Assembly: GCA_017515205.1 (NCBI GenBank) | Contig: JAFWHN010000005.1 | Location: 13-64,012, forward strand | DNA from: Candidatus Saccharimonadota bacterium | Lineage (GTDB): Bacteria; Patescibacteriota; Saccharimonadia; Saccharimonadales; Saccharimonadaceae | Length of the DNA stretch: 64,000 nt | Reading direction: 5' to 3' | Shown: positions 1,860 through 59,843 of the stretch, piece by piece | Position numbering within the stretch: position 1 is the first letter of the stretch | Layout: each line of letters opens with the position of its first letter | Position numbers and translations under genes: made by a program | The notes under the pieces: model-generated | Told to the model about the DNA's origin: nothing | Seen by the model: the letters and a program-made list of their open reading frames with translations, nothing else | The model's database searches: none

Positions 1860-1922
1860 TGGCAAAAGAGAGGATTTGCATCGAGCGTAGCGAGATTCGA
1901 ATCTCGCTTTTTGTGAAAAAAA
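1860..1922 (-). repeat. Degenerate copy of the tRNA-Ser 3' end plus hairpin motif
   Basis: tggcaaaagagaggatttg (1860) vs tRNA tggcggaagagagaggattcg (1923), followed by catcgagcgtagcgagattcgaatctcgc. Confidence 0.8.
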
Positions 1923-2012
1923 TGGCGGAAGAGAGAGGATTCGAACCTCCGAACGGGTTGCCCCGTCACACGATTTCGAGTCGTGCGCCTTCAACCACTC
2001 GGCCACTCTTCC
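1923..2012 (-). tRNA. tRNA-Ser(CGA)
   Basis: GGAAGAGTGGCCGAGTGG...GCACGA-CTCGAAA-TCGTGT, long variable arm, GGTTCGAATCC, encoded CCA. Confidence 0.97.
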
Positions 2013-2280
2013 ACCTCCAATTATATCATTTATCCACTCTAATCACAAATCGTACGATTTCCCACAAAATAATTAAAATCGTACGATTTTAAACTTTTAC
2101 ACTCAAATTTGTCCTTTCCAAAAAGCGCAAAAAAGTAATTTCTACAACAATTTTAAAAAATATGTTATAATAAAGATGTCACCTCACGGTGATGCTCATT
2201 TAATTTCTAGGTGGATGCTTAAAAACATCCACATTTGCACGAGCCGACCCTAAAGGTTGGTAGTGTACCATCATTAATTT

Positions 2281-2357
2281 GTGCCCGTAGCTCAGCTGGA
2301 TAGAGCGTTTGCTTGCGGAGCAAAAGGTCGCAGGTTCAAATCCTACCGGGCATACCA
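2281..2357 (+). tRNA. tRNA-Arg(GCG)
   Basis: Cloverleaf GTGCCCG/CGGGCAT; anticodon arm TTTGC-TTGCGGA-GCAAA; encoded CCA. Confidence 0.95.
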
Positions 2358-2410
2358 AAAAAAGACTCCAAAGTCTCTTTTTTTATTCCCGTTTATGCTA
2401 TAATGGACCC

Positions 2411-2893
2411 ATGCAATGGGATCTAATTACAACAATCATAGTTATTACAGCAATTTTAACCATGGGCGCTTTTGCTGTGCTCGGCCTTTACCAATGGATT
2501 ACACGAAAATCCATTAAAAAAGTCGACCGTAGAATTCTTTGTATGCTAATTCCGCTCGTTCTAATAGTCATTACTTACTTTGTTTTTGACAAATTATTCA
2601 TTCTTAATACTCGTCCTGACGGTTCTGGCGAGCCTTCCTTCCCTTCTACCCATACCATGATCGCCGCCACCATCTTCTTTGTCGTGATGATGGCTTTGCC
2701 GAAATACGTTAAAAACAAGAATCTACGGATTGTCCTAGATATCATCATGGTTATATTGGTTGGTTTAACCGCCACAGGACGAGTTCTCGCCAATAAACAC
2801 TGGCCAATTGACGTTATCGGCGGCATTGCTTTTGGTATTGTTTTTTCCGAAATCTACTATTACGCAGTTCACTTTAAAAAGGCTAAAAAATGA
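2411..2893 (+). CDS. PAP2-family membrane phosphatase
   Basis: Motifs RP, PSFPSTH, GRV..NKHWPIDV; TM helices. Start moved to 2411 because the track start overlaps the tRNA. Confidence 0.85.
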   Translation: MQWDLITTIIVITAILTMGAFAVLGLYQWITRKSIKKVDRRILCMLIPLVLIVITYFVFDKLFILNTRPDGSGEPSFPSTHTMIAATIFFVVMMALPKYVKNKNLRIVLDIIMVILVGLTATGRVLANKHWPIDVIGGIAFGIVFSEIYYYAVHFKKAKK

Positions 2894-3270
2894 GTAGTGT
2901 TTTTACCAAAATCATCAACGGCGAAATCCCTAGCTACAAGATTTATGAGGATGAAAAAACTGTCGCCTTTCTCGATATCAACCCTGAATCTAGAGGTCAC
3001 GTTCTGGTCGTACCCAAAAATGAAGTCGATAAAATTTACGATCTCCCTGATGAAGATTACGATGCTCTCATGCACACAGTCAAAAAACTCAGTTCGCACA
3101 TGGAAAAAGTTTTGGGTCAGCGCACCCTCTGGAAAGTTATTGGTACCGATGTCCCTCACGCTCACGTCCACCTACTTCCCTACGATGAAACTTGGGAGCA
3201 AGGCCGCACGTTGAAGCTCACTCCTGAAGAATTCGAACAAATCCGCCAAGAACTCGAATATCACGACTAA
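2890..3270 (+). CDS. HIT-family nucleotide hydrolase
   Basis: FTKIINGEIP...GHVLVVPK...VPHAHVH histidine triad. Confidence 0.92.
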   Translation: MSSVFTKIINGEIPSYKIYEDEKTVAFLDINPESRGHVLVVPKNEVDKIYDLPDEDYDALMHTVKKLSSHMEKVLGQRTLWKVIGTDVPHAHVHLLPYDETWEQGRTLKLTPEEFEQIRQELEYHD

Positions 3271-3292
3271 AACCCCTTAAAAGGGGCTTTTT
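3269..3292. terminator. Bidirectional intrinsic terminator between HIT and valS
   Basis: aaaacccctt-aa-aaggggctttt between convergent genes. Confidence 0.7.
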
Positions 3293-3300
3293 AAAAACTA

Positions 3301-5934: not shown

Positions 5935-6078
5935 ATCTCTATTATATCACAGTAAAAACGTCAAAATTACAAAACAGACCACCTCTGTTAAATATTGACT
6001 TTTTAGTAATTTTATGCTATCATATAGGTATAACCTAGTACATTCAAAATTGCTTTTTGTCGGGGGGAGGTACCAAAA

Positions 6079-17305: not shown

Positions 17306-17352
17306 ATAAAAATGACTAAATTAAGTAGGATTCGCATCAGATAAAGTGGGAT
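17306..17352 (-). repeat. Third, degenerate tRNA-Gln 3'-end/hairpin unit (left half)
   Basis: tgactaaattaagtaggattcgcatc vs unit at 18612 tggctagtttgagcaggattcgcatc (first 22 nt match 17/22). Confidence 0.7.
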
Positions 17353-17377: not shown

Positions 17378-18460
17378 TTAAGTTTTATCTTTTAAAAATA
17401 CTTTTCGCATAGACGGAAGCCGTATTTTTGCTAACTCTACCATGCTGTAAACAGATATTGACACTACGAATGTACCAACATAAAGCATAATCATTTTTGT
17501 AGTCACCGACAAATAATCATTCAAATATAGCACAATTACTTCATTTACTACTTGATGGAATAAGTAAAAACAAAGCGATATTTTTCCTAGGAAATCAAAC
17601 GGCCAAAAACGAATCTTCGATTGTAATGTTTTCCCTGATAGCAATAATGCTAAAGTCAACATAAAGAAGAAAATAACATTAAACGAGTATAATCTGTCCT
17701 CAAGCACGAGCATACGATTGTTCGTCCATAAAAATATCAAGCTGATGCCAAAACATAATAACTCTGCTATCGATAAGAAGACTATCCAAACTTTTCGAAA
17801 ATCTAGTTTTTTAATATATTCACTTAATACATAAACAATTGCGCCCATACTTAAGCCAGCCAGTGAGCGTAAAAGCGTAGTTGTATCAACACTACTAAAA
17901 GTAGCAAAGCCTAAATAATATGTTAAACAAAAAGGAACAATTAAGAAAAAGAGAAATGTTTTATGTTTTGATTGGCAAAATGTACAAAAAATCGGGTAAA
18001 TCACAACTACTGCGGCTAAATACCATGTCAGTCCAAGTGCTCCACCCCCCTGTGTATTTAAGAGCGTTAATTCCAAAACCATTCTCTTGAAAAAACCGAG
18101 CAGCTCTTCTAATGAGTTAAAATCTAGGTAAATAAATTTAACTAAATACATTAATAACACGGCTATAATCGTGTAAGGCAAGAACACCTTAAATTTTTTC
18201 CAAGTATATTTCGCCGCTTCCTTACATTGTTCATCAAAACTTTTTTCTTCATATTTTTTATTTGCAAAATGTTTAACCGTAAAATAGCCAGTTAGCATAA
18301 AGAACAATTCAACGAACAAAAACGCTCCAGCGAAATGAAAGACGGAAAAATTTTCCTGGTATCGTATGTACGGTGAGTGATACCAGATAATGAAAATGCA
18401 AGCTATAAAACGTAACAATTCAACCACACTAATGGGCCTGTTTTCTTTATTCTTCTTCAT
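17378..18460 (-). CDS. Acyltransferase-3 (OafA/YrhL-like) membrane O-acyltransferase
   Basis: VVELLRFIA, VELFFMLTGYF, WYLAA, LGKISLCFYLFH; ~10 TM helices; AT-rich. Confidence 0.88.
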   Translation of the reverse strand: MKKNKENRPISVVELLRFIACIFIIWYHSPYIRYQENFSVFHFAGAFLFVELFFMLTGYFTVKHFANKKYEEKSFDEQCKEAAKYTWKKFKVFLPYTIIAVLLMYLVKFIYLDFNSLEELLGFFKRMVLELTLLNTQGGGALGLTWYLAAVVVIYPIFCTFCQSKHKTFLFFLIVPFCLTYYLGFATFSSVDTTTLLRSLAGLSMGAIVYVLSEYIKKLDFRKVWIVFLSIAELLCFGISLIFLWTNNRMLVLEDRLYSFNVIFFFMLTLALLLSGKTLQSKIRFWPFDFLGKISLCFYLFHQVVNEVIVLYLNDYLSVTTKMIMLYVGTFVVSISVYSMVELAKIRLPSMRKVFLKDKT

Positions 18461-18567: not shown

Positions 18568-18688
18568 TGAGATCCGAATCCTCGTTTTTTGATTTTTTAT
18601 CTTATAAAAAATGGCTAGTTTGAGCAGGATTCGCATCGAACGAAGTGAGATCCGAATCCTCGTTTTTTAATCTTTTGTGAAACAAAAA
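18568..18688 (-). repeat. tRNA-Gln-linked ~77-bp tandem repeat units
   Basis: tgagatccgaatcctcgtttttt at 18568 and 18646; tggctag at 18612 and 18689. Confidence 0.88.
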
Positions 18689-18763
18689 TGGCTAGGCTGG
18701 CAGGATTCGAACCTGCGAATGACGGGACCAAAACCCGTTGCCTTACCACTTGGCGACAGCCTA
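18689..18763 (-). tRNA. tRNA-Gln(TTG)
   Basis: TAGGCTGTCGCCAAGTGGTAAGGC; ACGGG-TTTTGGT-CCCGT; GGTTCGAATCC; CCA. Confidence 0.97.
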
Positions 18764-18858: not shown

Positions 18859-21036
18859 ATGCCTAGAAAAAAGCGAAAATCAACACGAAAAACTTCTCGG
18901 CGCTCCACTTCCAAAAAAGAAGCACCAGTTGAATATGAACTTCCCGGTGGTTTTTGGCGTCAAATTGGCGCAATCGTTATGATTGCACTAGCTCTTTTTT
19001 TCGTTGTCACTTGGTTCGGTCAGGGCGGTACCATTTTTAACAAAGTTCATGAATTTATTTTAAGCGGACTGGGCTTTGCTACTTACTTTATTCCAGCTCT
19101 ATTAGTTTATCTTGCCGTAAAAATTTTCCGTTCAGATGACAATCGCGTTGCGGTGCCGGTTTATATCGCAAGCGTTTTAATGATTTTCTGGATTTCCGGC
19201 ATCGCTGCAATTTGGCAAAATGGTGGACTCGTTGGTAGTTGGCTTAATTCTTTATCTACTAAGTTTTTAAGCCAAGGCGTGGTTATTTTTATTTACATCA
19301 TTTTGATTTTTATCACTACGGCTTTTCTCTTGCAACTTTCTCCAGTCACCTTCTTTAAAGGCACCAAAAATATGGTCAAACGTAGCAAAATCCCTGAAGC
19401 AACCGACGAAGATGATACCAAAAAAAGCAAAAAACTTGGTCAACTCGAAATTAAAGTCAATTCTGGCCTTAATGGGGAACAACCAGCTTCGTCTAGTCTT
19501 TTGCATAAATCTCCTGCTAAATCTGCTCCCGAACCAGCTAAAGAGCCTACAGCTCTTGTAGCAGTTTCTGATCCAGATTGGAAAATGCCAACTGTCGACT
19601 TACTAGAGAAAAAACAATCTCCAGCTGATGCTGGCAACATTCAGCAAAACGCCTACATCATTAAATCTACCTTGGCAGAATTTGGTATTGATGTTGAAAT
19701 GGAAGGTGCCAACGTTGGTCCACGCGTTACGCAGTATACCATGCGTCCACCAGCCGGCGTTAATCTATCCAAAATTCTTTCCCGTGACAAGGAATTAGCC
19801 CTTAATCTTGCTGTCGACAAAATTCGTATCGAAGCGCCAATTCCGGGCACGCGTTCAGTTGGCGTTGAAATTCCAAATGCTCGGTCTGCTGACGTACGTT
19901 TGCGTGGCGTGCTTGAAAGCCCTGAATGGAAAAAGTCTAATGATCCACTTTGTTTTGCCGTTGGTAAAGACATTTCCGGTCACGCCGTAATAGCCAATCT
20001 GGCTAAAATGCCTCACCTTCTCATCGCAGGTACCACTGGTTCAGGTAAGTCCGTTATGACCAACACCCTCATTAGCTCCCTGCTTTATCGCAATACTCCT
20101 TCCGACATGAAACTCATTATTGTCGACCCAAAACAGGTTGAAATGGCCCAGTATCAAGACATTCCTCACCTTCTTACGCCAATTATTACCAGCACCGAAA
20201 AAGCTCTTTCTGCCATGAAATGGGCAGTTGGCGAAATGGAACGTCGTTACACTTTGATGGCAGAAGCAAAAGTCAAAAACATCGGTGATTACAACGCCAA
20301 AATGGCTAAATCCGATCAAGAAGAAAGCGAAAGCAAAATGCCATACATTGTAATTGTGATTGATGAAATGGCTGACCTTATGATGATGGCGGGGAAAGAC
20401 CTTGAAATGCTCATCGTCCGCATCGCTCAAAAAGGCCGTGCTGCCGGTATTCATTTGGTACTTGCTACTCAGCGTCCGGAAGTAAAAGTTATTACTGGCC
20501 TTATTAAGGCTAACATTCCAGGTCGTATCGCCTTCGCGGTCGGTTCCCGCATCGATTCTCAGATTATGCTCGACCAAGGTGGTGCTGAAAAACTTCTTGG
20601 CAAAGGTGATATGTTGCTTCTCACCACTGAAATGATGGGTAAACCACGTCGTATTCAGGGCGCTTGGGCCTCTGATGAAGACATCAATAAAGTGACTGAT
20701 TTTCTCCGTTCTCAACGTGAGCCACAGTACAACGACGAAGTGATTGCTCAACAAGTTGCCATTAAAGGTATGCCAGGCGGTGGCGGCCCAAGTGACCTAG
20801 GTCGGCGTTTTGATCCGAATGACCCAACCGTCAGAAAAGCCGTTGAAATCACTCTAAAACAAGGTAAGTTTTCTACTGCATCATTACAAACTTGGCTAGG
20901 TAAAGGTCACGGTTTTGTAGCTGGACTTGCAATTTGGTTGGAAGAAATTGGCGTCATTGGCCCTGCAAACGGCAACAAACCTCGCGATGTCCTCATCACT
21001 TCCATGGACGAGTTTGACCAACTGAGCAACATGTAG
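18859..21036 (+). CDS. ftsK: DNA translocase FtsK/SpoIIIE
   Basis: 4TM N-terminus, HLLIAGTTGSGKS, IDEMADLM, ATQRP, gamma domain. Confidence 0.96.
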   Translation: MPRKKRKSTRKTSRRSTSKKEAPVEYELPGGFWRQIGAIVMIALALFFVVTWFGQGGTIFNKVHEFILSGLGFATYFIPALLVYLAVKIFRSDDNRVAVPVYIASVLMIFWISGIAAIWQNGGLVGSWLNSLSTKFLSQGVVIFIYIILIFITTAFLLQLSPVTFFKGTKNMVKRSKIPEATDEDDTKKSKKLGQLEIKVNSGLNGEQPASSSLLHKSPAKSAPEPAKEPTALVAVSDPDWKMPTVDLLEKKQSPADAGNIQQNAYIIKSTLAEFGIDVEMEGANVGPRVTQYTMRPPAGVNLSKILSRDKELALNLAVDKIRIEAPIPGTRSVGVEIPNARSADVRLRGVLESPEWKKSNDPLCFAVGKDISGHAVIANLAKMPHLLIAGTTGSGKSVMTNTLISSLLYRNTPSDMKLIIVDPKQVEMAQYQDIPHLLTPIITSTEKALSAMKWAVGEMERRYTLMAEAKVKNIGDYNAKMAKSDQEESESKMPYIVIVIDEMADLMMMAGKDLEMLIVRIAQKGRAAGIHLVLATQRPEVKVITGLIKANIPGRIAFAVGSRIDSQIMLDQGGAEKLLGKGDMLLLTTEMMGKPRRIQGAWASDEDINKVTDFLRSQREPQYNDEVIAQQVAIKGMPGGGGPSDLGRRFDPNDPTVRKAVEITLKQGKFSTASLQTWLGKGHGFVAGLAIWLEEIGVIGPANGNKPRDVLITSMDEFDQLSNM

Positions 21037-21148
21037 CAAAAACCGTGCTTGCACGGTTTTTCTATGTTGCGAAAGTTGGACGAATTATTCGACCAACTGA
21101 GCAACATGTAGCAAAAACCGTGCTTGCACGGTTTTTCTATGTTGCGAA
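21016..21148 (+). repeat. Tandem 58-bp exact direct repeat (period 75) containing the ftsK 3' end and a hairpin
   Basis: 21016-21073 is identical to 21091-21148; internal palindrome aaaaaccgtgc-tt-gcacggttttt. Confidence 0.92.
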
Positions 21149-33916: not shown

Positions 33917-34855
33917 CTATTTTGTTTCACTGTGGAATTTTTCATGCACCTCTTTAAGGTGCGTGTCTGTCACGTGCGTATATATTTGCGTTGTTGAAAT
34001 ATCTGCATGACCTAGCATTGATTGTACTGCCCTCAAATCCGCTCCGTTCATCAGTAGATCAGTCGCAAACGAATGCCTCAGAGTATGCGGCGAAACGTGC
34101 TTAGTAATACCCGCAAGCCGGGCATATTTATCGATAATCCTTTCTACTGACCTCGCCGTCATTCGTCGATAATCACCCGATGTATCTGCCGTTTGCAAAT
34201 TCCGTGAGTTATTTAAAAACAGCGCTGGCAGGGAATCAGTGCGAGCGTCCAAATAATCTCTCACTCGGTCCGCACAAGCCTCCGAAATAAAAATTGGCCG
34301 ATCTTTTGAGCCCTTACCACGCACCATAAATTCTCGTCTTTCCAAATTAATTGAATCACGATTTAGCCCTACCAACTCTGATACTCGTAACCCTCCCGAA
34401 TACAACAGCTCAATGATAGCTCGGTCTCTTAGCCCCGACTCGGTGGATGTGTCCACTTGCTCTAACATTTCTTCCACCTCGTCAAAATGCAAAAACGTCA
34501 CTTGTTTCCTAATCACTCTCGGCAAATCCACTAGTGACGGATCTAATGATTTAATCTCCCTTCGTGCCAAGTATTTCAGAAACCCTCTCAATGCAATCAA
34601 ATGATATGCCTGTGTAATCACTTTCAAATCATCCTCGCCGTTTTTTGAACCGTAGCGGTTGAGCTTCAGGCGGTATTTTCTTAAGAGTTCTTTCGTAATA
34701 TCGCTCGGTTTAATCTCATCTTTATTTAGAATCTCCTGCGCAATTTCCAAAAACCTCTCTAAATATAATCGATAATTTTCAACGGTCTTCTTGCTGCGCC
34801 CCGCTTCCACCTCGAGATGTTCCAAAAAATCATTGATTAAATCGTAAATATCCAT
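33917..34855 (-). CDS. xerC: XerC/XerD-family tyrosine recombinase
   Basis: GLRVSE, GKGSK, HTLRHSFAT, LGHADISTTQIYTH; start corrected to 34855. XerC vs XerD cannot be resolved. Confidence 0.85.
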   Translation of the reverse strand: MDIYDLINDFLEHLEVEAGRSKKTVENYRLYLERFLEIAQEILNKDEIKPSDITKELLRKYRLKLNRYGSKNGEDDLKVITQAYHLIALRGFLKYLARREIKSLDPSLVDLPRVIRKQVTFLHFDEVEEMLEQVDTSTESGLRDRAIIELLYSGGLRVSELVGLNRDSINLERREFMVRGKGSKDRPIFISEACADRVRDYLDARTDSLPALFLNNSRNLQTADTSGDYRRMTARSVERIIDKYARLAGITKHVSPHTLRHSFATDLLMNGADLRAVQSMLGHADISTTQIYTHVTDTHLKEVHEKFHSETK

Positions 34856-34872
34856 ACTTTCATTATAGCATA

Positions 34873-34954
34873 GCAAGCGGATGACGGCTTTGGAGGGGGT
34901 CCCCCAAAAGTGCCACCACTTTTGGGGGAGGACAAAAGCCGGCAGGACCCGCTT
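34873..34954. repeat. GC-rich nested palindrome between divergent xerC and ndk
   Basis: cccccaaaagtg/cacttttggggg inner stem; ggcttt/aaagcc and aagcgg/ccgctt outer stems. Confidence 0.75.
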
Positions 34955-34985
34955 AGAATATGCTATAATAAAAAAAAGGAGTTTT

Positions 34986-35501
34986 ATGGCAAAATCACAA
35001 GATTTTATTCAAAGAAGTTTAGTAGTTTTAAAGCCGGACACTGTTCAGCGGGGAATCATCGGCGAAGTCATTCAGCGTTTTGAACGCGTCGGTCTCAAAA
35101 TCGTCGGTATGAAAATGGTCATGCCAGACGAAAAATTGTATCGCATGCACTATGAAGGCATCGGCCAAATGATTTCACGCCGGGGCGAACAAGCCTTTCG
35201 CTACAATGTTGAATATATGATGACTGGCCCCGTGATTGCGATGGTACTAGAGGGCGTAGAAGCTGTTCCGCTAGTCCGTAAAATTGTTGGCCCAACCGAA
35301 CCAAAATCTGCCGAAATGGGCACCATTCGTGGCGATTTCTCTCATATGAGTTTCGGCTATTCCGACGCCAAGGGGACTGGTGTGCCTAACCTCGTCCACG
35401 CCTCTGGCAATCTCGACGAGGCCAAAAAAGAGATCGACCTCTGGTTCAACGCCAACGAGCTCTACGACTATTCTGACTTAAACGAAAAATACACCCGTTA
35501 A
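34986..35501 (+). CDS. ndk: Nucleoside-diphosphate kinase
   Basis: KPDTVQRG, GTIRGDF, NLVHASG; AAGGAG SD before 34986. Confidence 0.95.
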   Translation: MAKSQDFIQRSLVVLKPDTVQRGIIGEVIQRFERVGLKIVGMKMVMPDEKLYRMHYEGIGQMISRRGEQAFRYNVEYMMTGPVIAMVLEGVEAVPLVRKIVGPTEPKSAEMGTIRGDFSHMSFGYSDAKGTGVPNLVHASGNLDEAKKEIDLWFNANELYDYSDLNEKYTR

Positions 35502-38520: not shown

Positions 38521-38596
38521 GGTCCGGTGGCTCAATGGATAGAGCAGCTCCGTCCTAAGGAGAAGGTTGTGCGTTCGACTCGCACCCGGATCACCA
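38521..38596 (+). tRNA. tRNA-Arg(CCT)
   Basis: GGTCCGG/CCGGATC; anticodon loop GTCCTAA; GTTCGAC; CCA. Confidence 0.92.
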
Positions 38597-39711: not shown

Positions 39712-39786
39712 TGGTGCGGGTATGGAGAGTCGGACTCCAATCTCATCCTTGGGAAGGATACATAATAGCCGTTATACGATACCCGC
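39712..39786 (-). tRNA. tRNA-Gly(CCC)
   Basis: GCGGGTA/TACCCGC; TATCC-TTCCCAA-GGATG; T-loop TCCGACT; A73-CCA. Confidence 0.9.
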
Positions 39787-39835: not shown

Positions 39836-41701
39836 ATGCAAGGATTAAAAGACCAACTTAAAAAAATTATTCAAGATTTGTATGGCCTCGATTTTGATCC
39901 CGAAGTTACTCCTGCTCCCGAGAATGTCACTGCCGATTATTCTACCAATGCACCCTTGAAACTTGCCAAAGAACTCCATAAATCTCCAATGATAATAGCA
40001 GAGGAGTTACAGAAAGCTTTTGTGAGCGTTCGCGACGACGGGAGCGAACGACGAAGCGCCGCCCGTAACGACGGGCCGGCGCGAGGAGGCGAGCAAAAGG
40101 TTTCTATAACTCCTCCTGGATTCATCAATTTCACTTTATCCGATTCTTACCTAGCAGAAAAGATTGATAGTTTATCAACTGATTTTGATCAATCTATTGT
40201 CTCTAATGATTACAAAGGTAAGACTGTGATTTGCGAGTTCAGCGATCCCAATCCTTTCAAAGTCCTTCACGTTGGTCACCTTTATACTAGTATCGTCGGT
40301 GACGCCATTTCAAATCTTTTTGAATATGCCGGCGCTAAGGTCATCCGCGCCAATTTCGGTGGTGACGTCGGTCTTCACGTGGCTAAAACCATGTATGTTC
40401 TACGGCAAAAGAATCCCAAAGAGATTCAAATCGAAGACATCTCCAGATGTTATGTCGAAGGTACCGCTCTTTATGAAGAAGATGAAAAAGCTCACCAAGA
40501 AATTACCGAGCTTAACAAAGAGATTTACAAAATCAATTCCGAAAACCTTCACGATTCTGACCTCGCTGAGTTATACTGGCAGGGCAGGGAATTATCTTAC
40601 GATTATTTCAAGAAGTTTTATGAGTCTATCGGCGTCAAGTTTGATAAGTATTATCCTGAATCTACCGTTGCGGCTCTTGGTCTAAAAACTGTCAAAGAAC
40701 AGCTAGAAAAAGGCGTCTACGAAAAAAGTGAAGGTGCTGTGATTTTCAACGGTGACAAATATGGCCTCCATACTCGCGTCTTTATTAATAGAGAAGGTGT
40801 CCCTACTTACGAAGCTAAGGATGTGGGTCTAATCTTCACTAAATGGCAAGATTATCATTTTGACAAATCTGTCGTCATTACTGGTTCCGAGCAGCTTGAT
40901 TACATGAAAGTGGTCTTAAAATCGGTCGAACAATACGCGCCCGAATTAGTTGAGCGCACCAGCCATTTAACTCACGGCCTTGTCAAACTCCCTGGTAATG
41001 TCAAAATGTCTTCTCGAAAAGGTAATTTCTTAAAAGCCGTTGACGTTCTCGATATGGTCAAAAACGAGCTAAAAACTGAGTATAACTCCGATGACGAGAT
41101 TGTCTCTCTCGCTGCTACCAAATATGCTTTCCTGAAATATAAAATGGGCGGCAACATTATCTTCGATCCGAAAGAATCCGTCAAAATGACCGGCAATTCC
41201 GGCCCATACCTGCTATATTCCGCCGTTCGTGCCGAAAAGATTCTTGAAAAGACGCAGGAGGGGCTCAAAAACAAGACACGAGTGAGCATTCACGACAACG
41301 GGAGTGAACGACGAAGCGCCACCCGTGACGACCGTCGTAGGAGCCGAGAAGACGAAAAGCTTGCTTTTCGTGTCGAGGCCACGCCCGACGGACGACCTAT
41401 GGTCGACGGGCCGGCGCGAGGAGGCGAGCGAGGGCTTGTTTTTGAGCCCTCCGAACGTGACTTATCTAAAAAGCTGTTGGACTATAAAGGAGTCTTGCAG
41501 GTCGCCGTTGCCGAAATGGCTCCGCACAAATTAGCGAATTACTTATACGAACTTGCCCAAACCTTTAGCCGTTTCTACGAGAGCTGTCCTGTAGCTGGCA
41601 GCGATCGAGAAGAGGAGCGCTTAAAGCTCGTCCAAGTCTACCTAGACACCATGACTCACGGTCTTAAAATTTTAGATATTAATATTCCGGAGGAAATGTA
41701 A
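39836..41701 (+). CDS. argS: Arginine--tRNA ligase with two in-frame repeat insertions
   Basis: PGFINF, DPNPFKVLHVGH, KMSSRKG, GNSGPYLLY; start after TATAAT + 6 nt. Confidence 0.95.
   Translation: MQGLKDQLKKIIQDLYGLDFDPEVTPAPENVTADYSTNAPLKLAKELHKSPMIIAEELQKAFVSVRDDGSERRSAARNDGPARGGEQKVSITPPGFINFTLSDSYLAEKIDSLSTDFDQSIVSNDYKGKTVICEFSDPNPFKVLHVGHLYTSIVGDAISNLFEYAGAKVIRANFGGDVGLHVAKTMYVLRQKNPKEIQIEDISRCYVEGTALYEEDEKAHQEITELNKEIYKINSENLHDSDLAELYWQGRELSYDYFKKFYESIGVKFDKYYPESTVAALGLKTVKEQLEKGVYEKSEGAVIFNGDKYGLHTRVFINREGVPTYEAKDVGLIFTKWQDYHFDKSVVITGSEQLDYMKVVLKSVEQYAPELVERTSHLTHGLVKLPGNVKMSSRKGNFLKAVDVLDMVKNELKTEYNSDDEIVSLAATKYAFLKYKMGGNIIFDPKESVKMTGNSGPYLLYSAVRAEKILEKTQEGLKNKTRVSIHDNGSERRSATRDDRRRSREDEKLAFRVEATPDGRPMVDGPARGGERGLVFEPSERDLSKKLLDYKGVLQVAVAEMAPHKLANYLYELAQTFSRFYESCPVAGSDREEERLKLVQVYLDTMTHGLKILDINIPEEM
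40022..40094 (+). repeat. GC-rich palindromic element, copy 1 (in argS)
   Basis: 73 nt; near-identical to 41282-41332 joined to 41408-41429. Confidence 0.9.
41261..41449 (+). repeat. Palindromic element copy 2 with nested 75-nt insert and 15-bp terminal inverted repeats (in argS)
   Basis: gggctcaaaaacaag (41261-41275) and cttgtttttgagccc (41435-41449) are perfect inverted repeats. Confidence 0.9.
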
Positions 41702-42488: not shown

Positions 42489-42888
42489 ATTTTTTCTCGT
42501 CTTTTGCGTCTTTTTCAGCTTTTTTTGCGTCACGCTTGCGATTTAATCTATTCATTGCCTTGATGATCATAAAGATGACCCATGCTATAATGAGAAATTC
42601 TACAGCCGTTTGGATAAAGTTGCCGTAAGCAATTACTGCCTCGTCACCCGTACCAAAGAAATTCGGAATCCGAATCGCCAGATTTGTAAAGTCAACACCA
42701 CCTAGGAGCAACCCTACAATTGGCATTACGATATCGTTGACGAGCGAATTTACGATTGCTGTGAAGGCTCCGCCTACTGCCACACCTACGGCTAGGTCAA
42801 TCATTGAACCTCGGTTAATAAATTCGATAAACTCCTCTTTCAACCCCTGTTTTTCTTTTAGCTTTGCCGCCTCCTCAGATTTTGCCAT
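42481..42888 (-). CDS. mscL: Large-conductance mechanosensitive channel
   Basis: [33 protein letters not shown]; YGNFI. Confidence 0.96.
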
Positions 42889-42905
42889 AAAACTCCTTTC
42901 GTTTA

Positions 42906-43520
42906 TTATTTGGTCTCTGAAAAATCATTAAATTTATCATATAAATTTTCCAGACTATTGTGATTTTCTTTGAGGTCTTCCTTAAAAGCCTCGTTCTTCG
43001 TTGCGTCTATCAGTTTAGATTCTTCTGATAGAATCATCGTTATCTCATACGCCATTTTATGTGCAAAAATCCGATCCAGAATACCATTGATTTTTGCGTC
43101 AAATAGCTCCGCATCTAGCTCATCCATTTCTAGTTTTGCCGCTTCGACGACTTTCTCATCAATATTTTTCTTATTTAAACTATATTTTTCAGTTAAATAT
43201 TCTTCAATCTTGTTATCTATATTGGATAGAATTCCCGAAAGGGAAGCACTATTAGACCTTAGATCGGAGGATTTAATATCAGACTGATATTTCTTAATGA
43301 TTTCGTTAGTATTATCAATATGTAAGAATAAATCAATTGATAAGTTTTTCTCGCCACCCTTTCCGCTACCGAGCATCGAACCTATAATAATCAATACTAG
43401 AAGTGCACCAACGCCTATTATACCAATCTTAAAATAGATTGAAGAGAAAATACCATTTTTTTTCTTTGCTACCGGTCGATTAGCGGCTGAGATTTGATTC
43501 AGATATTCTTGCCCGTCCAT
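42906..43520 (-). CDS. Hypothetical membrane protein
   Basis: YLNQI N-terminus, one TM helix, helical domain. Confidence 0.65.
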
Positions 43521-51981: not shown

Positions 51982-54359
51982 TGAAGCGTTTAGTATTAAT
52001 CGATGGTAAATCAGTTTTCTATCGTGGATACTATGCTATGGGCGCTCTTAGCCTCTCAGATGGCACCCCTACTGGTGGCGTTTACGGTTTTGCTGCCATT
52101 GCCATGGAGATTGTCAAAAAACTTGACCCTACCAAAGTCGTGGTAGCTTGGGACTCAAAAACTTCTACCGCCAAACGTCGTGCCATTTACCAAGATTATA
52201 AAGCTGGTCGCATTAAGCCCGGCGAAGATTTCTATACTCAAATACCTTTGCTTCAAACTTTAATTCAAGATTTAGGCTGGAGTTTTGTTGAAATTGATAA
52301 TTATGAAGCAGACGATATCATTGGGACACTAAGTCGTGAAGCCGACGAAGCCGGAGACTATGAAACTTACATTATTTCCAGCGACCTCGACATGCTCCAA
52401 ATTGTCGATAGCAATACCCATATGTGGCGTATTCTTAAAGGTTTCACTAATATTGAAAAAATTAATGTCCCCGAGCTAGAAGCTAAGTACGGCATCAAAA
52501 AGTCTCAATTCTTAGATCTTAAAGCTTTGAAAGGCGATTCTTCCGATAATATCCCAGGCGTTCCTGGCATCGGCGAGAAAACCGCTGCAAAATTATTAAA
52601 TGATTATGGTGATTTGGATAACCTTTATGAGCATCTAGATGAAATCAAGGGTTCCACCAAGACCAAACTTGAAGCAGGGAAAGATTCTGCCTATATGTCT
52701 CGTGACCTTGCTCGTATTATGTTTGACGCACCTGTTGACCTCAAAAAAATCCCTGATTTTCATTTTGACCAAGACAAAGTAATATCTGGCCTCAAAAAGC
52801 TCGAATTCAACTCCCTCATCCGCAAGGTTGACAAGGAAGCGCTCGAAAAAAATACTTTCGAGGAGCATAATCGCCGAGGGCCGGCCGCCCGTGGCGACGG
52901 GCCAGCCGGACGCGGCCCCAGAAGTAACAATGCTTCAGTGCCTGACATCATTGATTGGGACATCAAAGGCTTAATGCATAGCGACCAAACCATCGCCGAT
53001 GCAATTCTATCTGGCAAAAAATCTTTTTGGGACCTCGGCCAAGCTACCTTTTTGTTAAATCCTCTTTCGCGTGAAGAGCCACACCTTGCAGTTTTAGAAG
53101 AAGAGTACCAGCGTCAATTAACCGAATTTGCAAAAAATCCTCAACTTCTCAGTATCTATCAAGATTTTGATCTTCCACTCATCCCAATTCTATACAAAAT
53201 GGAAGATAAAGGCATGACTTTAGACTCAGATTATTTTAAAAAGCTTAAATCCGAATACGAGGAAATTATCCAGAACCTTGAACAAGAAATTTATCAATTG
53301 GCTGGTCAAGAATTAAATCTCAACTCACCCATTCAACTCTCCGAAGTGCTATTCAATAAGTTGCAACTTCCGACTAAAGGTATTAAAAAGACTACGCGGG
53401 GTTATTCTACTGGTGCTAAAGAATTAGATAAACTTCAAAATCTTCATCCTGTCATTCCCAAAATTATCGAATATCGCGAAGCTGCCAAACTTTTAAATAC
53501 TTACATTATTCCTTTGCCAGAACTTGCTGATTCGAACAATCGTATTCATACTACTTTTACTCAAAACGTTACTGCTACTGGTCGCCTTAGCTCCAAGGAT
53601 CCCAATCTCCAGAATATTCCTGTCCGCACTGACGAAGGCAAGCGTATCCGCACTGGTTTTATCGCACCGAAGGGCAAAATCTTTGTTTCCGCTGATTATT
53701 CTCAATTTGAACTCCGCCTTGCCGCCGTTCTTTCAAACGATCAGGCCCTTATTGATGATTTTAATCACGACATCGACGTTCATACCAAGACTGCCTCTGA
53801 AGCATTCAAAACTCCTTTTGCAAAAGTTACCAAGACACAACGTCGTGCTGCTAAGGTGATTAATTTTGGCATTCTTTATGGTATGAGTGTCAAAGGCTTG
53901 TCTGATGCTGCTAAAATGCCATTTAACGAAGCTAAAGATTTTATCGACAATTATTTCAAATTACGTGCACCTATTAAACAAAAATTGGAGGCTATCTTAA
54001 AACAAGCCAGGGAAGCAGGCTTCGTCGAAACTTTCTACGGCCGTCGCCGTCCTACGCCAGACGTTAAATCAAGTAATTTCCTTATCCGCCAAGCCGCTGA
54101 GCGTGCTGCTGCCAATATGCCGATTCAGGGTACCGAAGCTGATCTCATGAAACGCGCCATGATCCAAGTTGACCAGGCTTTGCCAGATGATGCTTCTCTG
54201 GTCATGCAAGTGCATGATTCTCTTATTGTGGAATGTGACGAAAAATCAGCTCAACTGGTATCCGATATTCTTAAAACCAAAATGGAAGCCATTGCTCCTG
54301 AATTAAAAATCAAACTTGCTGTTGACGTGACCACTGGCCACAACTGGGGCGAATTATAA
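51981..54359 (+). CDS. polA: DNA polymerase I (reduced 3'-5' exonuclease region)
   Basis: YEADD, GDSSDNIPGV, TGRLSS..PNLQNIP, ADYSQ.ELR, K..NFG..YG, QVHD. Confidence 0.96.
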   Translation: MKRLVLIDGKSVFYRGYYAMGALSLSDGTPTGGVYGFAAIAMEIVKKLDPTKVVVAWDSKTSTAKRRAIYQDYKAGRIKPGEDFYTQIPLLQTLIQDLGWSFVEIDNYEADDIIGTLSREADEAGDYETYIISSDLDMLQIVDSNTHMWRILKGFTNIEKINVPELEAKYGIKKSQFLDLKALKGDSSDNIPGVPGIGEKTAAKLLNDYGDLDNLYEHLDEIKGSTKTKLEAGKDSAYMSRDLARIMFDAPVDLKKIPDFHFDQDKVISGLKKLEFNSLIRKVDKEALEKNTFEEHNRRGPAARGDGPAGRGPRSNNASVPDIIDWDIKGLMHSDQTIADAILSGKKSFWDLGQATFLLNPLSREEPHLAVLEEEYQRQLTEFAKNPQLLSIYQDFDLPLIPILYKMEDKGMTLDSDYFKKLKSEYEEIIQNLEQEIYQLAGQELNLNSPIQLSEVLFNKLQLPTKGIKKTTRGYSTGAKELDKLQNLHPVIPKIIEYREAAKLLNTYIIPLPELADSNNRIHTTFTQNVTATGRLSSKDPNLQNIPVRTDEGKRIRTGFIAPKGKIFVSADYSQFELRLAAVLSNDQALIDDFNHDIDVHTKTASEAFKTPFAKVTKTQRRAAKVINFGILYGMSVKGLSDAAKMPFNEAKDFIDNYFKLRAPIKQKLEAILKQAREAGFVETFYGRRRPTPDVKSSNFLIRQAAERAAANMPIQGTEADLMKRAMIQVDQALPDDASLVMQVHDSLIVECDEKSAQLVSDILKTKMEAIAPELKIKLAVDVTTGHNWGEL
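52878..52918 (+). repeat. Palindromic element related to the argS copies (in polA)
   Basis: gccgcccgtggcgacgggccagc (52884-52906) matches argS gccgcccgtaacgacgggccggc at 20/23. Confidence 0.8.
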
Positions 54360-54369
54360 AATCTGCATC

Positions 54370-54400: not shown

Positions 54401-54407
54401 ATTCTAT

Positions 54408-54845
54408 TTATTGAGCGTAAGCAACGTTTTGCTCCATCGCCTGAGTTTCTAGCGCCGCGAGTCTTTCCGCATCATCAATTGAAGAATTAACACAATGCTT
54501 CACGCGCGCCTTTTCCTCAGCTTTTTTGGCATCGTTCCAGCGGTCCAAAGTACCTACTAGATAACCAGTAATTCGGCGCAGTCTTTCAAATTTCCCTTCA
54601 TCGAACCACACCTCATGTTCGTCAAAGTATTCCTTCATAGCCTTATCGCCAGCTTTTTCACCAATCAACTTCATACCAATCTCCACTAAGCAGGACACAT
54701 GCATCGTTTCATATTGGTCAAACTCTGCTAAAGCTTCTTTGATTTCTTTTTCTGAAACTTTTGCATACTTAGCTAATGATTTTTCAAATCTTTTTAAATC
54801 AAAAGCTTCAGCATCATTCGGGTTCTTATATAAAATTTTCTTCAT
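54408..54845 (-). CDS. Mini NrdD-like protein (ATP-cone-like N-terminus plus glycyl-radical C-terminal segment)
   Basis: FERLRRITGYLVGTLDRWNDAKKAEEKARVKH matches the class III RNR C-terminus; no catalytic barrel. Confidence 0.8.
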   Translation of the reverse strand: MKKILYKNPNDAEAFDLKRFEKSLAKYAKVSEKEIKEALAEFDQYETMHVSCLVEIGMKLIGEKAGDKAMKEYFDEHEVWFDEGKFERLRRITGYLVGTLDRWNDAKKAEEKARVKHCVNSSIDDAERLAALETQAMEQNVAYAQ

Positions 54846-54903
54846 GGCTTTCCTTTCTGTGCGTTTTTCACGCGTTTATGTTTATAAGCATTACCTGAAA
54901 TCC

Positions 54904-54958: not shown

Positions 54959-54996
54959 TTTTCCACAATTTAGCCGTTTCATGGTAAAATGTATCT

Positions 54997-56527: not shown

Positions 56528-57125
56528 AATCTTTACTGGTGAAGATCGTATTAGAGCCAAAAAAGCCATTGTCGATTTTCTCGGCCCCGACTACGAAATT
56601 ATCGAAGGCACCGATTTGACAACTTCCGACCTCCCTACCATTTTTCTCGGTCAATCCCTTTTTGCTAAAAAGCGTAAAGTTTTGATTCAAGATTTGTCAG
56701 TTAATAAACCAGTTTTTGATGAGCTACCAAAGTATTTAGATACCCCACATGAAGTTGCCATTCTTGAGCTCAAACTAGATAAACGTTCAACCACTTACAA
56801 AGCCCTTCAAAAGCAAATCGAAATTAAACAGTTTTCGCTTGCTAAAAATCCTAATCTCAGCCTTGTTTTTGATATTTATCGCACTGCCAAAACTAATGGC
56901 GAGAAAGCTGTCTCCATGCTCGAAAAAATCAAATCCGAAGAAGACCCTATCATGTTTTTTGGTTTACTTGTCTCGCAAGCTATTAAAGATTACAACACGA
57001 GGCAGGGAATTAAAGAAAAAAGAGCTCTTAAAGAGCTCTCCGATTTAGACATTAAACTTAAAACTACTTCTTTTCAGCCTTGGCTTTTGATTGAGTCGTT
57101 TTTGCTGCGGCTTTCGTCGTTTTAG
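56520..57125 (+). CDS. holA: DNA polymerase III delta subunit, short form
   Basis: IFTGED, LPTIFLGQSLF..KR, D..LK...PWLLIESFL; located next to rpsT. Confidence 0.65.
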   Translation: MIKIFTGEDRIRAKKAIVDFLGPDYEIIEGTDLTTSDLPTIFLGQSLFAKKRKVLIQDLSVNKPVFDELPKYLDTPHEVAILELKLDKRSTTYKALQKQIEIKQFSLAKNPNLSLVFDIYRTAKTNGEKAVSMLEKIKSEEDPIMFFGLLVSQAIKDYNTRQGIKEKRALKELSDLDIKLKTTSFQPWLLIESFLLRLSSF

Positions 57126-57459
57126 CAGCTGGCTTCTTTGTAGCGGTAGCTTTCTTAGCGGCTGGTTTTTTAGCAGTCGCTTTTGTCGCCGGCTTTGCCG
57201 CCTTTTTCTCTAATTTCATGCCCGCTTTTTTTGCTAATTCTGCGAGCTTTGCCTTCCGTCTAGAAGCAGTATTTTTCTTTAGCAAATCTTTTTTTACGGC
57301 TTTGTCATATTCTGACTGTGCTTTTGCAAAATTCTTAGCCGTTGGCTTCAACTTAAAAGCCTTCACTGCGGCCTTAATATCTTTCTTAATTTTTTCGTTA
57401 TGCTCGGTTCGCTTTTCAGCTTGCCTTGCAGCCTTTTTGGCAGACTTAATAATCGGCAT
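57064..57459 (-). CDS. rpsT: 30S ribosomal protein S20 with Lys/Ala-rich C-terminal extension
   Basis: MPIIKSAKK...KKNTASRRKAKL; tail KKPAAKK repeats. Confidence 0.93.
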   Translation of the reverse strand: MPIIKSAKKAARQAEKRTEHNEKIKKDIKAAVKAFKLKPTAKNFAKAQSEYDKAVKKDLLKKNTASRRKAKLAELAKKAGMKLEKKAAKPATKATAKKPAAKKATATKKPAAKTTKAAAKTTQSKAKAEKK

Positions 57460-57635
57460 CTATCTTCCTATTTAGATTAAAAATTAATGACTTTTGATTA
57501 TTATAACTCTTTCTCTAGAAAAAGTAAAGAGGGTTCTCTTGAGTTTTCGCCACCAACAACTAACTACTATTTTACCTTACAAATCTCTTGCAGTTTTTTT
57601 AAGCTTATGGTAACATAAAAAATAGAAAGGTAATT

Positions 57636-59555
57636 ATGCCAGACGATAATGTAAACCCAGTTCCAATGAGTCAACCAGCCGCTCCTACGGCGACCGATGA
57701 TATGAGCGCTATGCCAATACCAGAGCCTGTGCCTAGTCCGGCAGATGATAATCCGGTCGTAGAGCCAACTGTTCCTCCCGAGGTTCCTCCTGCTGATCAG
57801 CCCGATTCAGCCTCAATTTATGCAGAAGTGGCCAGCAAAATTGCGGAATCCAAGAACATTTTGGTTGCATTATCGAGTGACCCTTCAGTGGACGAAATGT
57901 CCGCCGCAATTGGACTTTCAATTTACCTTGGCAGATTAGGCAAACGTGCTACTGCAATTTACTCTGGCGCCACGCCAAATGCTTTGGAATTTTTGAAACC
58001 GGAAGAAACTTTTGAATCTACTGCAGATACCTTACAAGATTTTGTAATTGCTCTTAATAAAGACAAAGCCGATCATTTGCGCTATAAGTTAGATGGTGAT
58101 TTTGTTAAAATCTACATCACCCCGTACAAGGCTCGTATCACTAAAGAAGATTTGGATTTCTCATACGGCGATTTCAATGTTGATCTCGTACTAGCACTCG
58201 ATGTTGCCAACGGCATTGACTTAGATTCCGCGCTTCGTGAACACGGTCGTATCATGCATGATGCTGTAATTGTCAATATCACCACAGGCAAACCTGGCAA
58301 ATTTGGCGAAATCGAATGGAGCGATAAAACCGCCAGTTCCGTTTCTGAAATGATTGCTAACTTACTATTTAGCATTAAGAGTGATGTCAAAATTGAAAAA
58401 GAGGAAGCCACTGCTTTCCTAACTGGTATCGTGGCTGCTACCAATCGTTTTTCTAATGCTACCACCACCCCAGAGACTATGAAATTAGCTTCTAAACTCA
58501 TGGAATCTGGTGCTAATCAACAGCTTGTTTCGCAAAACATTACTCCAGATGTTGAAAATGAATTCTTCTCGATTTCAGCTAACAAAACCGCTAAAAAACC
58601 AGAACAAGATCCGACTAAACTCGAAATCGAACACGATGGCGAAGGCGAAGCGGTTGATGAAGACAAAGAAGTTAGTGCCACTGTCAATGAAAAAGAGAGC
58701 ACTCTATTAGACGATCTGAAAGCCGCTGAAGCTAGCCTTGCTCAAACTGGCGCTGAAACTACACCTGAATCCGATCATACTGCGCTCAAAATTGATAGCG
58801 CTACCCCAGCTCCAGCTCCAGAAGCCGAAGCTACGCCTTCTGAAGAACCTGAGCAGCAGGAAAATGAATCACTTGAACAAAATACTGATGTTGCTCCAGA
58901 ACCAACGGCTGAGCCAGAGTCAAGTAGCCCAGCTGAACCAGTCTCGACTCCTACTATTGAACCATCTGGTGGAATTTTAAGTGATACCCCAAAAGAGCAG
59001 GATGCTGAATCAGCTTCAGAGACTTCCTCAGAGCCTACTTCTGAACCTACTCCAGCAATCACCCCAGAACCTACTTCAGAAACTGTCCCAGAAGAACCAT
59101 CTGGCCAAATTTCAGATAAACCAGAAAAAGTACTTCAACCTTCATCCGATTTAAGCACAGATACCACTGAAGCAGAACAAAATAAATATGGTCAAATGCT
59201 AGAGGATGCCTTGAATAGTGTAAACAGCGCTTCAGAAGCTCCAAGTATGCCAGCAGAGAACCCTGCCACTATGAGTACTCCAAGCGTGCCAGATAATCCA
59301 GAAATCAACGGTGTCCCAGAAATTAATTATATGCCAATGCCAGGTGACGAGATTTTACCACCTCCTCCTACTCCACCTATTGACCCTGCAGGCGGTTCTG
59401 TTACTGCGCCAGCTCCTATGACGCAACCTATAGAACCGGCCGCACCGGCGCCAGAACCAGCTCCTACTCCACTTGGGCCTCAACCAGCTATGCAAGATCA
59501 AGTTTACGCTCCTCAAGCTTCCGACCCAGGTGCCTTCAAAATCCCAGGAATGTAA
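57636..59555 (+). CDS. DHH-fold (NrnA-like) protein with long Pro/Glu-rich disordered tail
   Basis: NILVALS.DP..D, SSVSEMI, ATAFLTGIVAATNRF; DHH motif not present. Confidence 0.7.
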   Translation: MPDDNVNPVPMSQPAAPTATDDMSAMPIPEPVPSPADDNPVVEPTVPPEVPPADQPDSASIYAEVASKIAESKNILVALSSDPSVDEMSAAIGLSIYLGRLGKRATAIYSGATPNALEFLKPEETFESTADTLQDFVIALNKDKADHLRYKLDGDFVKIYITPYKARITKEDLDFSYGDFNVDLVLALDVANGIDLDSALREHGRIMHDAVIVNITTGKPGKFGEIEWSDKTASSVSEMIANLLFSIKSDVKIEKEEATAFLTGIVAATNRFSNATTTPETMKLASKLMESGANQQLVSQNITPDVENEFFSISANKTAKKPEQDPTKLEIEHDGEGEAVDEDKEVSATVNEKESTLLDDLKAAEASLAQTGAETTPESDHTALKIDSATPAPAPEAEATPSEEPEQQENESLEQNTDVAPEPTAEPESSSPAEPVSTPTIEPSGGILSDTPKEQDAESASETSSEPTSEPTPAITPEPTSETVPEEPSGQISDKPEKVLQPSSDLSTDTTEAEQNKYGQMLEDALNSVNSASEAPSMPAENPATMSTPSVPDNPEINGVPEINYMPMPGDEILPPPPTPPIDPAGGSVTAPAPMTQPIEPAAPAPEPAPTPLGPQPAMQDQVYAPQASDPGAFKIPGM

Positions 59556-59566
59556 AAAACCGTATT

Positions 59567-59592
59567 AAAAAGAGGCTCTAGGCCTCTTTTTT
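59567..59592. terminator. Bidirectional terminator
   Basis: aaaaagaggc-tcta-ggcctctttttt. Confidence 0.7.
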
Positions 59593-59601
59593 GTACTAAA
59601 A

Positions 59602-59765
59602 CGGCGTATTCACACGTTCGACGAGGCTCGCACCGAGCCGCAGTCGAGATCCGAATCTCTCTTTTTGATATTTTTTTCGTAAAAAAAAATGGCGGATCCG
59701 CACCGAAGGTTCGAGCTTTGCTCGACGAGGCTCGAACTCGCGACCGCTTTTTTTCGTAAAAAAAA
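59602..59765 (-). repeat. Two degenerate tRNA-Asp 3'-end copies with hairpin inserts
   Basis: tggcggatcc at 59690 and 59766; acgaggctcg occurs three times; gagatccgaatctc motif near 59646. Confidence 0.88.
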
Positions 59766-59843
59766 TGGCGGATCCGACGAGGCTCGAACTCGCGACCTCT
59801 GCCGTGACAGGGCAGCGCTCTAAACCAACTGAGCTACGAATCC
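59766..59843 (-). tRNA. tRNA-Asp(GTC)
   Basis: GGATTCG/CGGATCC; CTGCC-CTGTCAC-GGCAG; TTCGAGC; CCA. Confidence 0.97.

Follow-up and report, generated by a model that had tools for sequence, protein, structure and literature searches.

Palindromic elements that sit in frame inside protein-coding genes are, to our knowledge, a curiosity known almost only from Rickettsia, where Ogata et al. reportedly described them in 2000 and 2002. The Rickettsia palindromic elements (RPEs) are short (~70-150 nt), hairpin-forming repeats of one reduced-genome genus that often lie in frame in housekeeping genes, where they are read through into extra peptide segments and leave the gene active; they have no known transposase (PMC10969869). 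Here we describe GC-rich palindromic elements of comparable behavior in a 64,000-nt stretch of DNA (hereafter the window; C6:13-64012 of a 9-contig, 650-kb assembly with 40% guanine plus cytosine, GC). The host is a rumen-type member of the Saccharibacteria, Candidatus Nanosyncoccus: its arginyl-tRNA synthetase (ArgRS) finds its nearest matches in metagenome-assembled genomes labelled Candidatus Saccharibacteria or Candidatus Nanosyncoccus from the gut of sheep, goat, yak and buffalo, with the best match at 81% amino-acid identity and Ca. Nanosyncoccus alces among them. In what follows, G000 denotes this genome, other G numbers same-genus genomes, and L numbers individual loci. A preliminary description of the window had flagged ten hairpin-rich sites as the work of a single mobile system. 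All of the inserts that it listed are present at or near the places that it gave, and the site between xer and ndk, which it had called possible, is real. We judge it probable, taking the explanation as a whole, that the ten sites split into three palindrome-centered phenomena and do not form a single system: group A comprises two sites in argS, one in polA and the xer/ndk spacer; group B the sites at tRNA-Ser, tRNA-Gln and tRNA-Asp; and group C the end of ftsK.

The elements of group A are non-autonomous, Nanosyncoccus-specific palindromic DNA elements that behave like RPEs. As in Rickettsia, they are dispersed, multicopy, hairpin-forming and genus-restricted in a reduced genome, and stop-free, in-frame copies in intact housekeeping genes encode a predicted accessory surface loop whose site is empty in some orthologues. 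We call them RPE-like because they agree with RPEs in every behavioral respect, the name standing for a kind and not for a homology family. Unlike RPEs, they occur in an unrelated phylum (Saccharibacteria, which belong to the CPR, the candidate phyla radiation), are strongly GC-rich in a 40% GC genome, possess a covarying three-way-junction core with locus-specific outer arms instead of element-borne ends, and are found nested in hairpin loops, as flipped orthologous copies and with signs of within-genome homogenization. Our search of the full-text literature returned no description of such repeats in Saccharibacteria or Nanosyncoccus.

Other described families were also compared. Like MITEs (miniature inverted-repeat transposable elements) and Correia/NEMIS-type repeats, the GC-rich elements are small, non-autonomous, palindromic, multicopy and sometimes part of terminator-like structures. 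MITEs, however, carry conserved terminal inverted repeats recognized by a transposase, together with target-site duplications, whereas here the outer arms differ at each locus, no target-site duplication or direct repeat marks the boundaries, and no cognate transposase was found. The hairpin repeats also recall repetitive extragenic palindromic (REP) sequences, which form bacterial interspersed mosaic elements (BIMEs) and are served by REP-associated tyrosine transposases (RAYTs). REPs are 20-40 nt long, extragenic and tied to a Y1 (RAYT) gene, and their spread depends on single-strand structure; a co-resident Y1 gene is absent here (PF01797, 0 matches). Integron-like capture was considered as well and set aside, there being no integron-type tyrosine recombinase beside the array and only one cassette.

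Anatomy, sites and distribution of the GC-rich elements

A GC scan of the whole genome picks out about 20 GC-rich islands with a common hairpin (CCCGTGACGACGGG), which nhmmer likewise recovers, and a covariance model, R1, finds 17 copies in this genome. Each copy folds into a conserved core within a long outer helix (-48 to -78 kcal/mol). The core is a three-way junction in which conserved joining strands (TTTCGGAG and CGAGAATTAG) connect three parts: the closing helix GGACA/TGTCC; a small hairpin, looped by UACG, GCAA or UGCU; and a long hairpin whose loop reads UGRMGA. The flanking inverted arms differ in sequence at every locus; they exceed the 99th percentile of random genomic controls in 34 of 37 copies tested and change coordinately between species (L072 vs L079). 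The preliminary description had claimed compensatory changes for the argS/polA and tRNA motifs alike, and strong support exists for the GC-rich group only. There, RNAalifold reports such changes in 10 of the 14 pairs of the long hairpin, and in an independent set of 57 copies, taken from argS in 80 other species, double changes occur at 16 of 19 pairs, pairing holds in 82.9% of cells as against 63.4% in shuffles, and the covariation score reaches 0.404 as against at most 0.061 with slid partners. The claim of a motif shared by argS and polA stands insofar as their core matches one covariance model; this core exists as several related variants, the xer/ndk hairpin is separate, and the ftsK site carries neither group's repeat motif. 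Searches for relatives of the core elsewhere gave nothing: an Rfam 15 search of 14 copies at E <= 1 returned no family, its sole match being a neighboring tRNA; BLAST against phage and plasmid collections returned no match; and of 46 matches to the core pattern on viral contigs, the covariance model confirmed 0.

Within the window, the group A elements measure 70-190 nt. The first argS copy (site 1; 40017..40092, forward strand) lies in frame at about ArgRS residues 63-85, directly before the conserved PGFINF, has a GC content of 53% over a background of ~40%, and folds at -51 kcal/mol. The second (site 2; 41262..41448, forward strand, in frame, -82 kcal/mol) is closed by an outer stem of 14 bp (GGCTCAAAAACAAG / CTTGTTTTTGAGCC) and harbors, in the apical loop of its main hairpin, a nested 75-nt hairpin (41333..41407, forward strand) that splits ...CCCGTGACGAC|...|GGGCC, a loop conserved in every other copy. 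With the nested insert removed, the site-2 core is 92% identical to that of site 1; an analogous insert is found in the site-1 copy of locus L138. Both argS copies belong to variant B, whose 5' hairpin is its own and differs from those of other variants. The polA copy (52855..52925, forward strand, in frame), matched by nhmmer and by the covariance model, is of variant C (GAGGAGCATAATCGCCGA...) and lies between the 5'-exonuclease and polymerase domains, with Pfam domains of PolA on both sides; variant C recurs in argS site 2 of G011, L083 and L068. The spacer between the Xer and NDK genes contains a separate GC-rich hairpin family, 'E' (34877..34960, no strand assigned, -42 kcal/mol), present as a single copy in this genome and recurring, in frame, at site 2 of argS in G013 and L138.

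The preliminary description had proposed a dispersed, structured hairpin family that enters open reading frames (ORFs) in frame, and this is what we observe: at least 13 copies are in frame and free of stop codons, in 11 housekeeping genes of this genome. LepA, GatB, UvrB, PriA, a tRNA(U5) methyltransferase, GatA, MnmA, TruB and PolA each host a single copy, and ArgRS and a UPF0020 methyltransferase host two. The host genes keep their full Pfam domain sets. Copies occur in both orientations and use more than one frame; read by eye, the consensus is open in about two of its six frames, and copies in a third frame have GAATGAG in place of GAATTAG, thereby losing the stop codon. In the AlphaFold2 model of ArgRS (mean predicted local distance difference test, pLDDT, 86.8), values drop below 50 at residues 73-85 and 484-531 only, both of them inserts, which are thus predicted to be disordered loops. 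In-gene copies would then persist only in open frames, translated as disordered, hydrophilic loops. More generally, the elements appear to occupy either protein surface loops or the tips of pre-existing hairpins, for example in the loop of a hairpin resembling a terminator or in another copy's apical loop. The spacer between rpoC and secY, readable in seven relatives, illustrates the former kind of tip: in six of them a plain A-run/stem/T-run terminator hairpin occupies the place, G017, the seventh, carries another GC-rich hairpin, and in this genome the core lies within a terminator-like hairpin.

R1 copies are present in 34 of 37 same-genus genomes, at 0-33 per genome with three congeners having none; across 24 other genera in the order the count is 0. 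The polymorphism among related genomes that the preliminary description called for is plainly seen, with sites that are filled or empty, decayed or flipped. Of 12 congeners, four have a filled argS site 1, three a short one (in two cases recognizable as a remnant of the element) and five an empty one; site 2 is filled in six and empty in six, and G006 has a third site. Remnants left by deletion or AT-decay are seen in G001, G007 and G002, the DNA of G007 missing ~69 nt at the site-1 position. The same argS loop holds different variants in different clades, and at L133 the variant-B core is inverted between the same arms of site 1 and still in frame. ArgRS length runs continuously from 507 to 662 aa across 148 sequences, with at least four insertion hot spots. 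Copies within one genome may also influence each other. In G000, G006 and L070, core identity between sites 1 and 2 of one genome is 90-95%, and the cores at the same argS site in G000 and L070 are 75-81% identical. For the close pair L123/L079, core identity is 85-87% within a genome and 88-89% between genomes, and the two are mosaic, the long hairpin being site-specific and the junction sequence genome-specific, a pattern that suggests gene conversion between copies. Taken over time, these comparisons show elements being gained, nesting in one another, inverting between their arms and eroding through deletion, probably with partial homogenization inside one genome. Host replication and recombination acting on hairpins, through template switching and gene conversion, would be what forms the arms and lets the core move or flip.

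tRNA-linked units and the ftsK end

Genomic islands use tRNA genes as integration sites, with attachment sites that span the T-loop to the 3' end, as reportedly surveyed by Williams in 2002. The tRNA-linked units of group B resemble such islands in being direct repeats from T-loop to CCA, in forming arrays, and in having foreign cargo between them at one place, the only example in the window. They depart from islands in that most enclose only 25-40 nt, usually a terminator, in that each unit has an arm with a constant left end, and in that no integrase adjoins them here. The arm (GGATTCGGACC) comes close to being the T-arm (GGTTCGAATCC) in reverse complement, and we therefore regard the unit as a palindromised T-arm. 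Our preferred reading, which we hold at about even odds, is that these units are attachment-site scars of small, T-loop-targeting integrative elements; they would then be decaying direct repeats left behind by such elements, with one pair still bracketing an acyltransferase gene.

The preliminary description was right that the 3' ends of the tRNAs are duplicated. All three window loci are on the reverse strand, each tRNA being followed by its units, which are all old and decayed. Next to tRNA-Ser(cga) (1923-2012), the decayed unit (1860..1907; pattern match at C6:1888-1914) consists of an 18-bp palindrome (GCGAGATTCGAATCTCGC), a junction ending TCGATGC and a degenerate copy of the tRNA 3' end (AAATCCTCTC-TTTTGCCA); intact versions exist in congeners, with up to three tandem units in the array of G039. 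Next to tRNA-Gln(ttg) (18689-18763), unit 1 (18612..18662) has the arm CGAGGATTCGGATCTCA, the junction CTTCGTTCGATGC and a tRNA 3'-end copy (GAATCCTGCTCAAACTAGCCA); the same unit is found in G001, where its own tRNA tail is copied 20/20, and is absent from G006, G007, G008 and G010. A second hairpin arm (18568..18584), with no adjacent tRNA copy, and a distal copy of the tRNA-Gln 3' end, itself decayed and bearing a degenerate arm (17308..17352; 78% identity to unit 1) form the proximal and distal boundaries of an islet. Its cargo, an Acyl_transf_3 gene (17378..18460; PF01757, E = 1e-24), is horizontally acquired: among the 41 genomes of the genus only 1 has it, and its GC content is 32.6% against 40.5% for the genome. 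Of the proposal that tRNA arrays capture genes, the lineage-specific gene between two tRNA-Gln 3'-end copies therefore survives; the integron-like part does not, with a single cassette and no integron integrase. Next to tRNA-Asp(gtc) (59766-59843), unit 1 (59690..59747) is a T-arm-to-CCA copy split by the inverted T-loop of the same tRNA (GCTCGAAC) plus CCTTCGGTGC, and unit 2 (59600..59661; pattern match at C6:59640-59668) has the arm GAGAGATTCGGATCTCGA, a junction ending CTCGGTGC and a decayed copy of the tRNA 3' part.

Beyond the window, an exact 10-mer test finds a copy of a tRNA's own 3' end within ~40-80 nt after 7 of the 46 tRNAs of this genome, the three window tRNAs included, and three further cases were seen by eye. 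The copied segment runs from the T-loop through CCA plus ~15 nt beyond, and the genus consensus reads [terminator]-GGATTCGGACCTTCGGTGC|GAATCC...CCA. This pattern has 14 matches in the genus, in 8 of 37 genomes, with 0 in 24 other genera and 0 in reversed-pattern controls. All 10 matches outside the window lie directly 5' of a tRNA 3'-end copy, and eight have the matching tRNA immediately upstream (Ser-cga, Ser-gct, Gln-ttg or Arg-ccg); of the other two, one on C3 of G000 follows a tRNA-Ser cut by the contig start, and one in G046 has no nearby tRNA gene. Because the copies, which match the local tRNA, range from perfect to heavily decayed, the units are best seen as neutral scars of different ages and not as a maintained function. 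On viral contigs the tRNA arm has 0 exact matches, and a degenerate arm pattern has 26, many of them phage tRNA T-arms in reverse and none unit-like.

Two further observations concern tRNA-Ser(cga). The start of C3 in G000 (C3:1-150; L044) has a second, truncated tRNA-Ser(cga) with a perfect unit (24/24), near-identical to the last unit of the G039 array; set beside the old, decayed unit of the window, this points either to two loci or to strain heterogeneity in the assembly. In the window, a further single-gene islet at a tRNA seems to be formed by a RhuM-plus-Fic/DOC gene (747-1793, reverse strand), which has the tRNA-Ser unit on one side and a Mur ligase gene on the other.

The end of ftsK is a different case. 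Quasi-palindrome template-switch mutations and tandem inversion duplications have reportedly been worked out in the Ripley, Lovett and Roth laboratories, and the ftsK site shares with them direct duplication, a short inverted junction and the perfecting of a palindrome, features that possibly extend to the outer arms of the GC-rich elements. Those mutations are sporadic events in laboratory strains, whereas the products here would be stable and genus-wide. At ftsK (21003..21148, forward strand; FtsK domains confirmed), ~79 nt covering the last codons, the stop codon and the terminator are tandemly duplicated, as two 61-nt copies of 98% identity at 75-nt spacing (21013-21073, 21088-21148). At their junction the native quasi-palindrome GGACGAG TTTGACC has been perfected to GGACGAAT T ATTCGACC. 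The preliminary description's duplicated gene end is thus real as a plain tandem duplication, one that is independent and recent and bears a template-switch signature.

The rest of the window adds a few isolated observations. The ndk and mscL genes have a 32-nt stretch in common (34965-34996 / 42878-42909; 94% identity), in opposite orientations and 7.9 kb apart, which spans the -10 box, the ribosome-binding site and the first four codons (TATAATAAAAAAAAGGAGTTTTATGGCAAAATC). Two tRNAs called by ARAGORN, tRNA-Arg(cct) at 38521-38596 and tRNA-Gly(ccc) at 39712-39786, fall under the Rfam tRNA gathering score in a whole-window scan. A 145-aa ORF (54408-54845, reverse strand) matches only the last ~30 positions of the NrdD profile (PF13597 532-562), that is, the glycyl-radical end of anaerobic ribonucleotide reductase without the catalytic barrel.

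Competing explanations and candidate enzymes

First, and as a serious rival, it is possible, if on the unlikely side, that the tRNA-end units and the ftsK duplication alike arose without any integrase, by snap-back template switching at T-arm and terminator palindromes, a route that would yield a direct duplication with a short inverted junction. Several observations count for this, some of them also against attachment-site scars. The arm is nearly a T-arm in reverse complement; the Lys(ttt) and Asp units hold inverted copies of their own T-arms, a finding closer to local template switching than to a foreign attachment arm; the ftsK junction has the same architecture, with its quasi-palindrome perfected; the duplication includes the ~15 nt past CCA; and PF00239 and PF00589 searches place no recombinase next to any tRNA unit in this genome. 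The constancy of the arm's left end (GGATTCGG) at all loci is moreover odd for random deletion scars. Yet an identical 19-nt arm, whose center CCTTCGGTGC is non-templated, is common to Ser, Gln and Arg tRNAs and to different species, and foreign genes lie within or beside the repeats. A region of G046 (C33:8700-19700; L051, L318) is a further point against snap-back: two tRNA-Ser(cga) 3'-end copies, one with an arm, lie beside restriction-modification genes and ~250 nt from a tandem pair of large serine recombinase genes. The 40 kb scanned of this contig contain no tRNA gene, and the region could be a free or orphan attachment region.

Second, how would the GC-rich elements propagate? One joint reading, which we entertain only tentatively and consider unlikely, has two halves. 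In the first, the elements of Nanosyncoccus, and perhaps those of Saccharibacteria at large, would spread without a transposase, through host template switching into hairpin tips or into the codons of protein loops: the conserved core would be copied, its stem built from adjacent host codons, and the product then flipped and homogenized between copies. In keeping with this, non-core residues number 16-17 in three hand-checked filled copies of argS site 1 and 10-12 where the site is empty. The surplus is approximately one arm, which fits, without proving, that one arm is an inverted copy of adjacent host codons. In the alternative half, the core would be a functional RNA or single-stranded DNA (ssDNA) module housed in the loops of essential proteins.

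Third, the elements may instead be a few ancient, site-locked inserts, inherited vertically and subject only to flipping, decay and gene conversion, with no transposition at all. We think this quite unlikely, although it draws on observations that also tell against ongoing mobility. In many species the argS copies begin at shared positions, with 56 of 57 running in the sense orientation; L123 and L079 show site-specific inheritance, keeping site-specific long hairpins with genome-specific junction sequence; and the remnants in G001, G007 and G002 attest to decay. Much of the pattern could thus be old vertical inserts plus gene conversion. Transposition to new sites is read from occupancy and copy number, the closest relative in the genome and metagenome contig collections having 81% ArgRS identity. 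A wholly site-locked history is nevertheless hard to reconcile with a range of 0-33 copies within one genus, with the occupation of 11 host genes and intergenic sites in this genome alone, with nested copies, which require new insertions, and with a loop that holds different variants by clade and elsewhere is truly empty.

Fourth, it is doubtful that the core is a selected nucleic-acid module (for instance a three-way junction that binds protein, an element serving termination or stability, or a small ribozyme), with the in-frame copies as tolerated or useful by-products. Strong covariation, UNCG/GNRA-type loops and tandem G.A positions would suit such a module, as would the replacement of terminator hairpins by intergenic copies. 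On the sense strand of the element, G.T pairs outnumber A.C pairs by 18 to 5, a weak hint of single-strand constraint; together with the loops, this hints at an RNA-level constraint that a purely selfish-DNA model does not need. Against a selected module, copies occur in both orientations relative to host genes and flipped copies are tolerated, many lineages show decay or loss and three congeners manage with no copy, Rfam offers no match, and there is no consistent position relative to genes.

Finally, is there an enzyme that could drive any of these repeats? Profile searches for Y1/HUH proteins, tyrosine and serine recombinases and reverse transcriptases gave no element-specific enzyme for any repeat group. 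Y1/HUH (PF01797) has 0 matches in this genome and matches in 2 of 41 genus genomes, and the only tyrosine recombinase here (PF00589) is the universal Xer (33917-34876), which is found also in genera without elements. A single large serine recombinase (PF00239) is encoded in this genome (C7:42098-43718, a 565-aa open frame); its gene converges on the 3' end of tRNA-Lys(ctt), of which no 3'-end copy was found on C7. Serine recombinases are common in the order and bear no relation to copy number (G006 has 22 copies and 0 genes, G044 0 copies and 4 genes), and only 2 of 10 serine recombinase loci have a tRNA within 1.5 kb. Reverse transcriptases (PF00078), present in 31 of 41 genus genomes, do not track copy number either, being absent here and from the high-copy G010, G011 and G012; the reverse-transcriptase-like ORFs of the genus are ~380-400 aa long. 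The unifying machinery of the preliminary description, one HUH/RAYT-like or tyrosine-recombinase enzyme acting on ssDNA hairpins and making tRNA arrays into integron-like capture sites, is therefore very improbable: both groups are confined to the same genus and palindrome-centered, one gene does lie between tRNA-Gln repeats with hairpin arms on either side, and the 5' end of variant A resembles the tRNA arm, but Y1/HUH is missing here and from 39 of 41 congeners, the lone tyrosine recombinase is Xer, no enzyme follows copy number, the single cassette lacks an integron integrase, the tRNA pattern is seen in 8 of 37 genus genomes against 34 of 37 for the GC-rich element, and no similarity of more than ~12 nt can be aligned between the groups. 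The link between the two motif groups thus reduces to genus restriction and a palindrome-centered architecture. The resemblance of variant A (GGGGATTCCGGAG; L072, L123, L137) to the arm of the tRNA units (GGGGATTCGGACC; L041-L048) may be chance or a distant link between the groups.

Significance for Saccharibacteria and other reduced genomes

The RPE-like elements of Nanosyncoccus constitute an independent analogue in an ultra-small epibiont of the CPR, which suggests that in-frame palindromic elements recur in reduced genomes. They also make for a data-rich system, with hundreds of species-level genomes, 0-33 copies in each, and the same loops filled, empty, flipped or nested, which can be used to study both how elements originate without a transposase and how essential proteins tolerate them. 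For annotation, the variation of ArgRS length from 507 to 662 aa is due to inserts, and the use of insert presence or absence as lineage markers is affected as well. The tRNA-linked units, for their part, bear on how tRNA-adjacent repeats in CPR genomes are to be interpreted.

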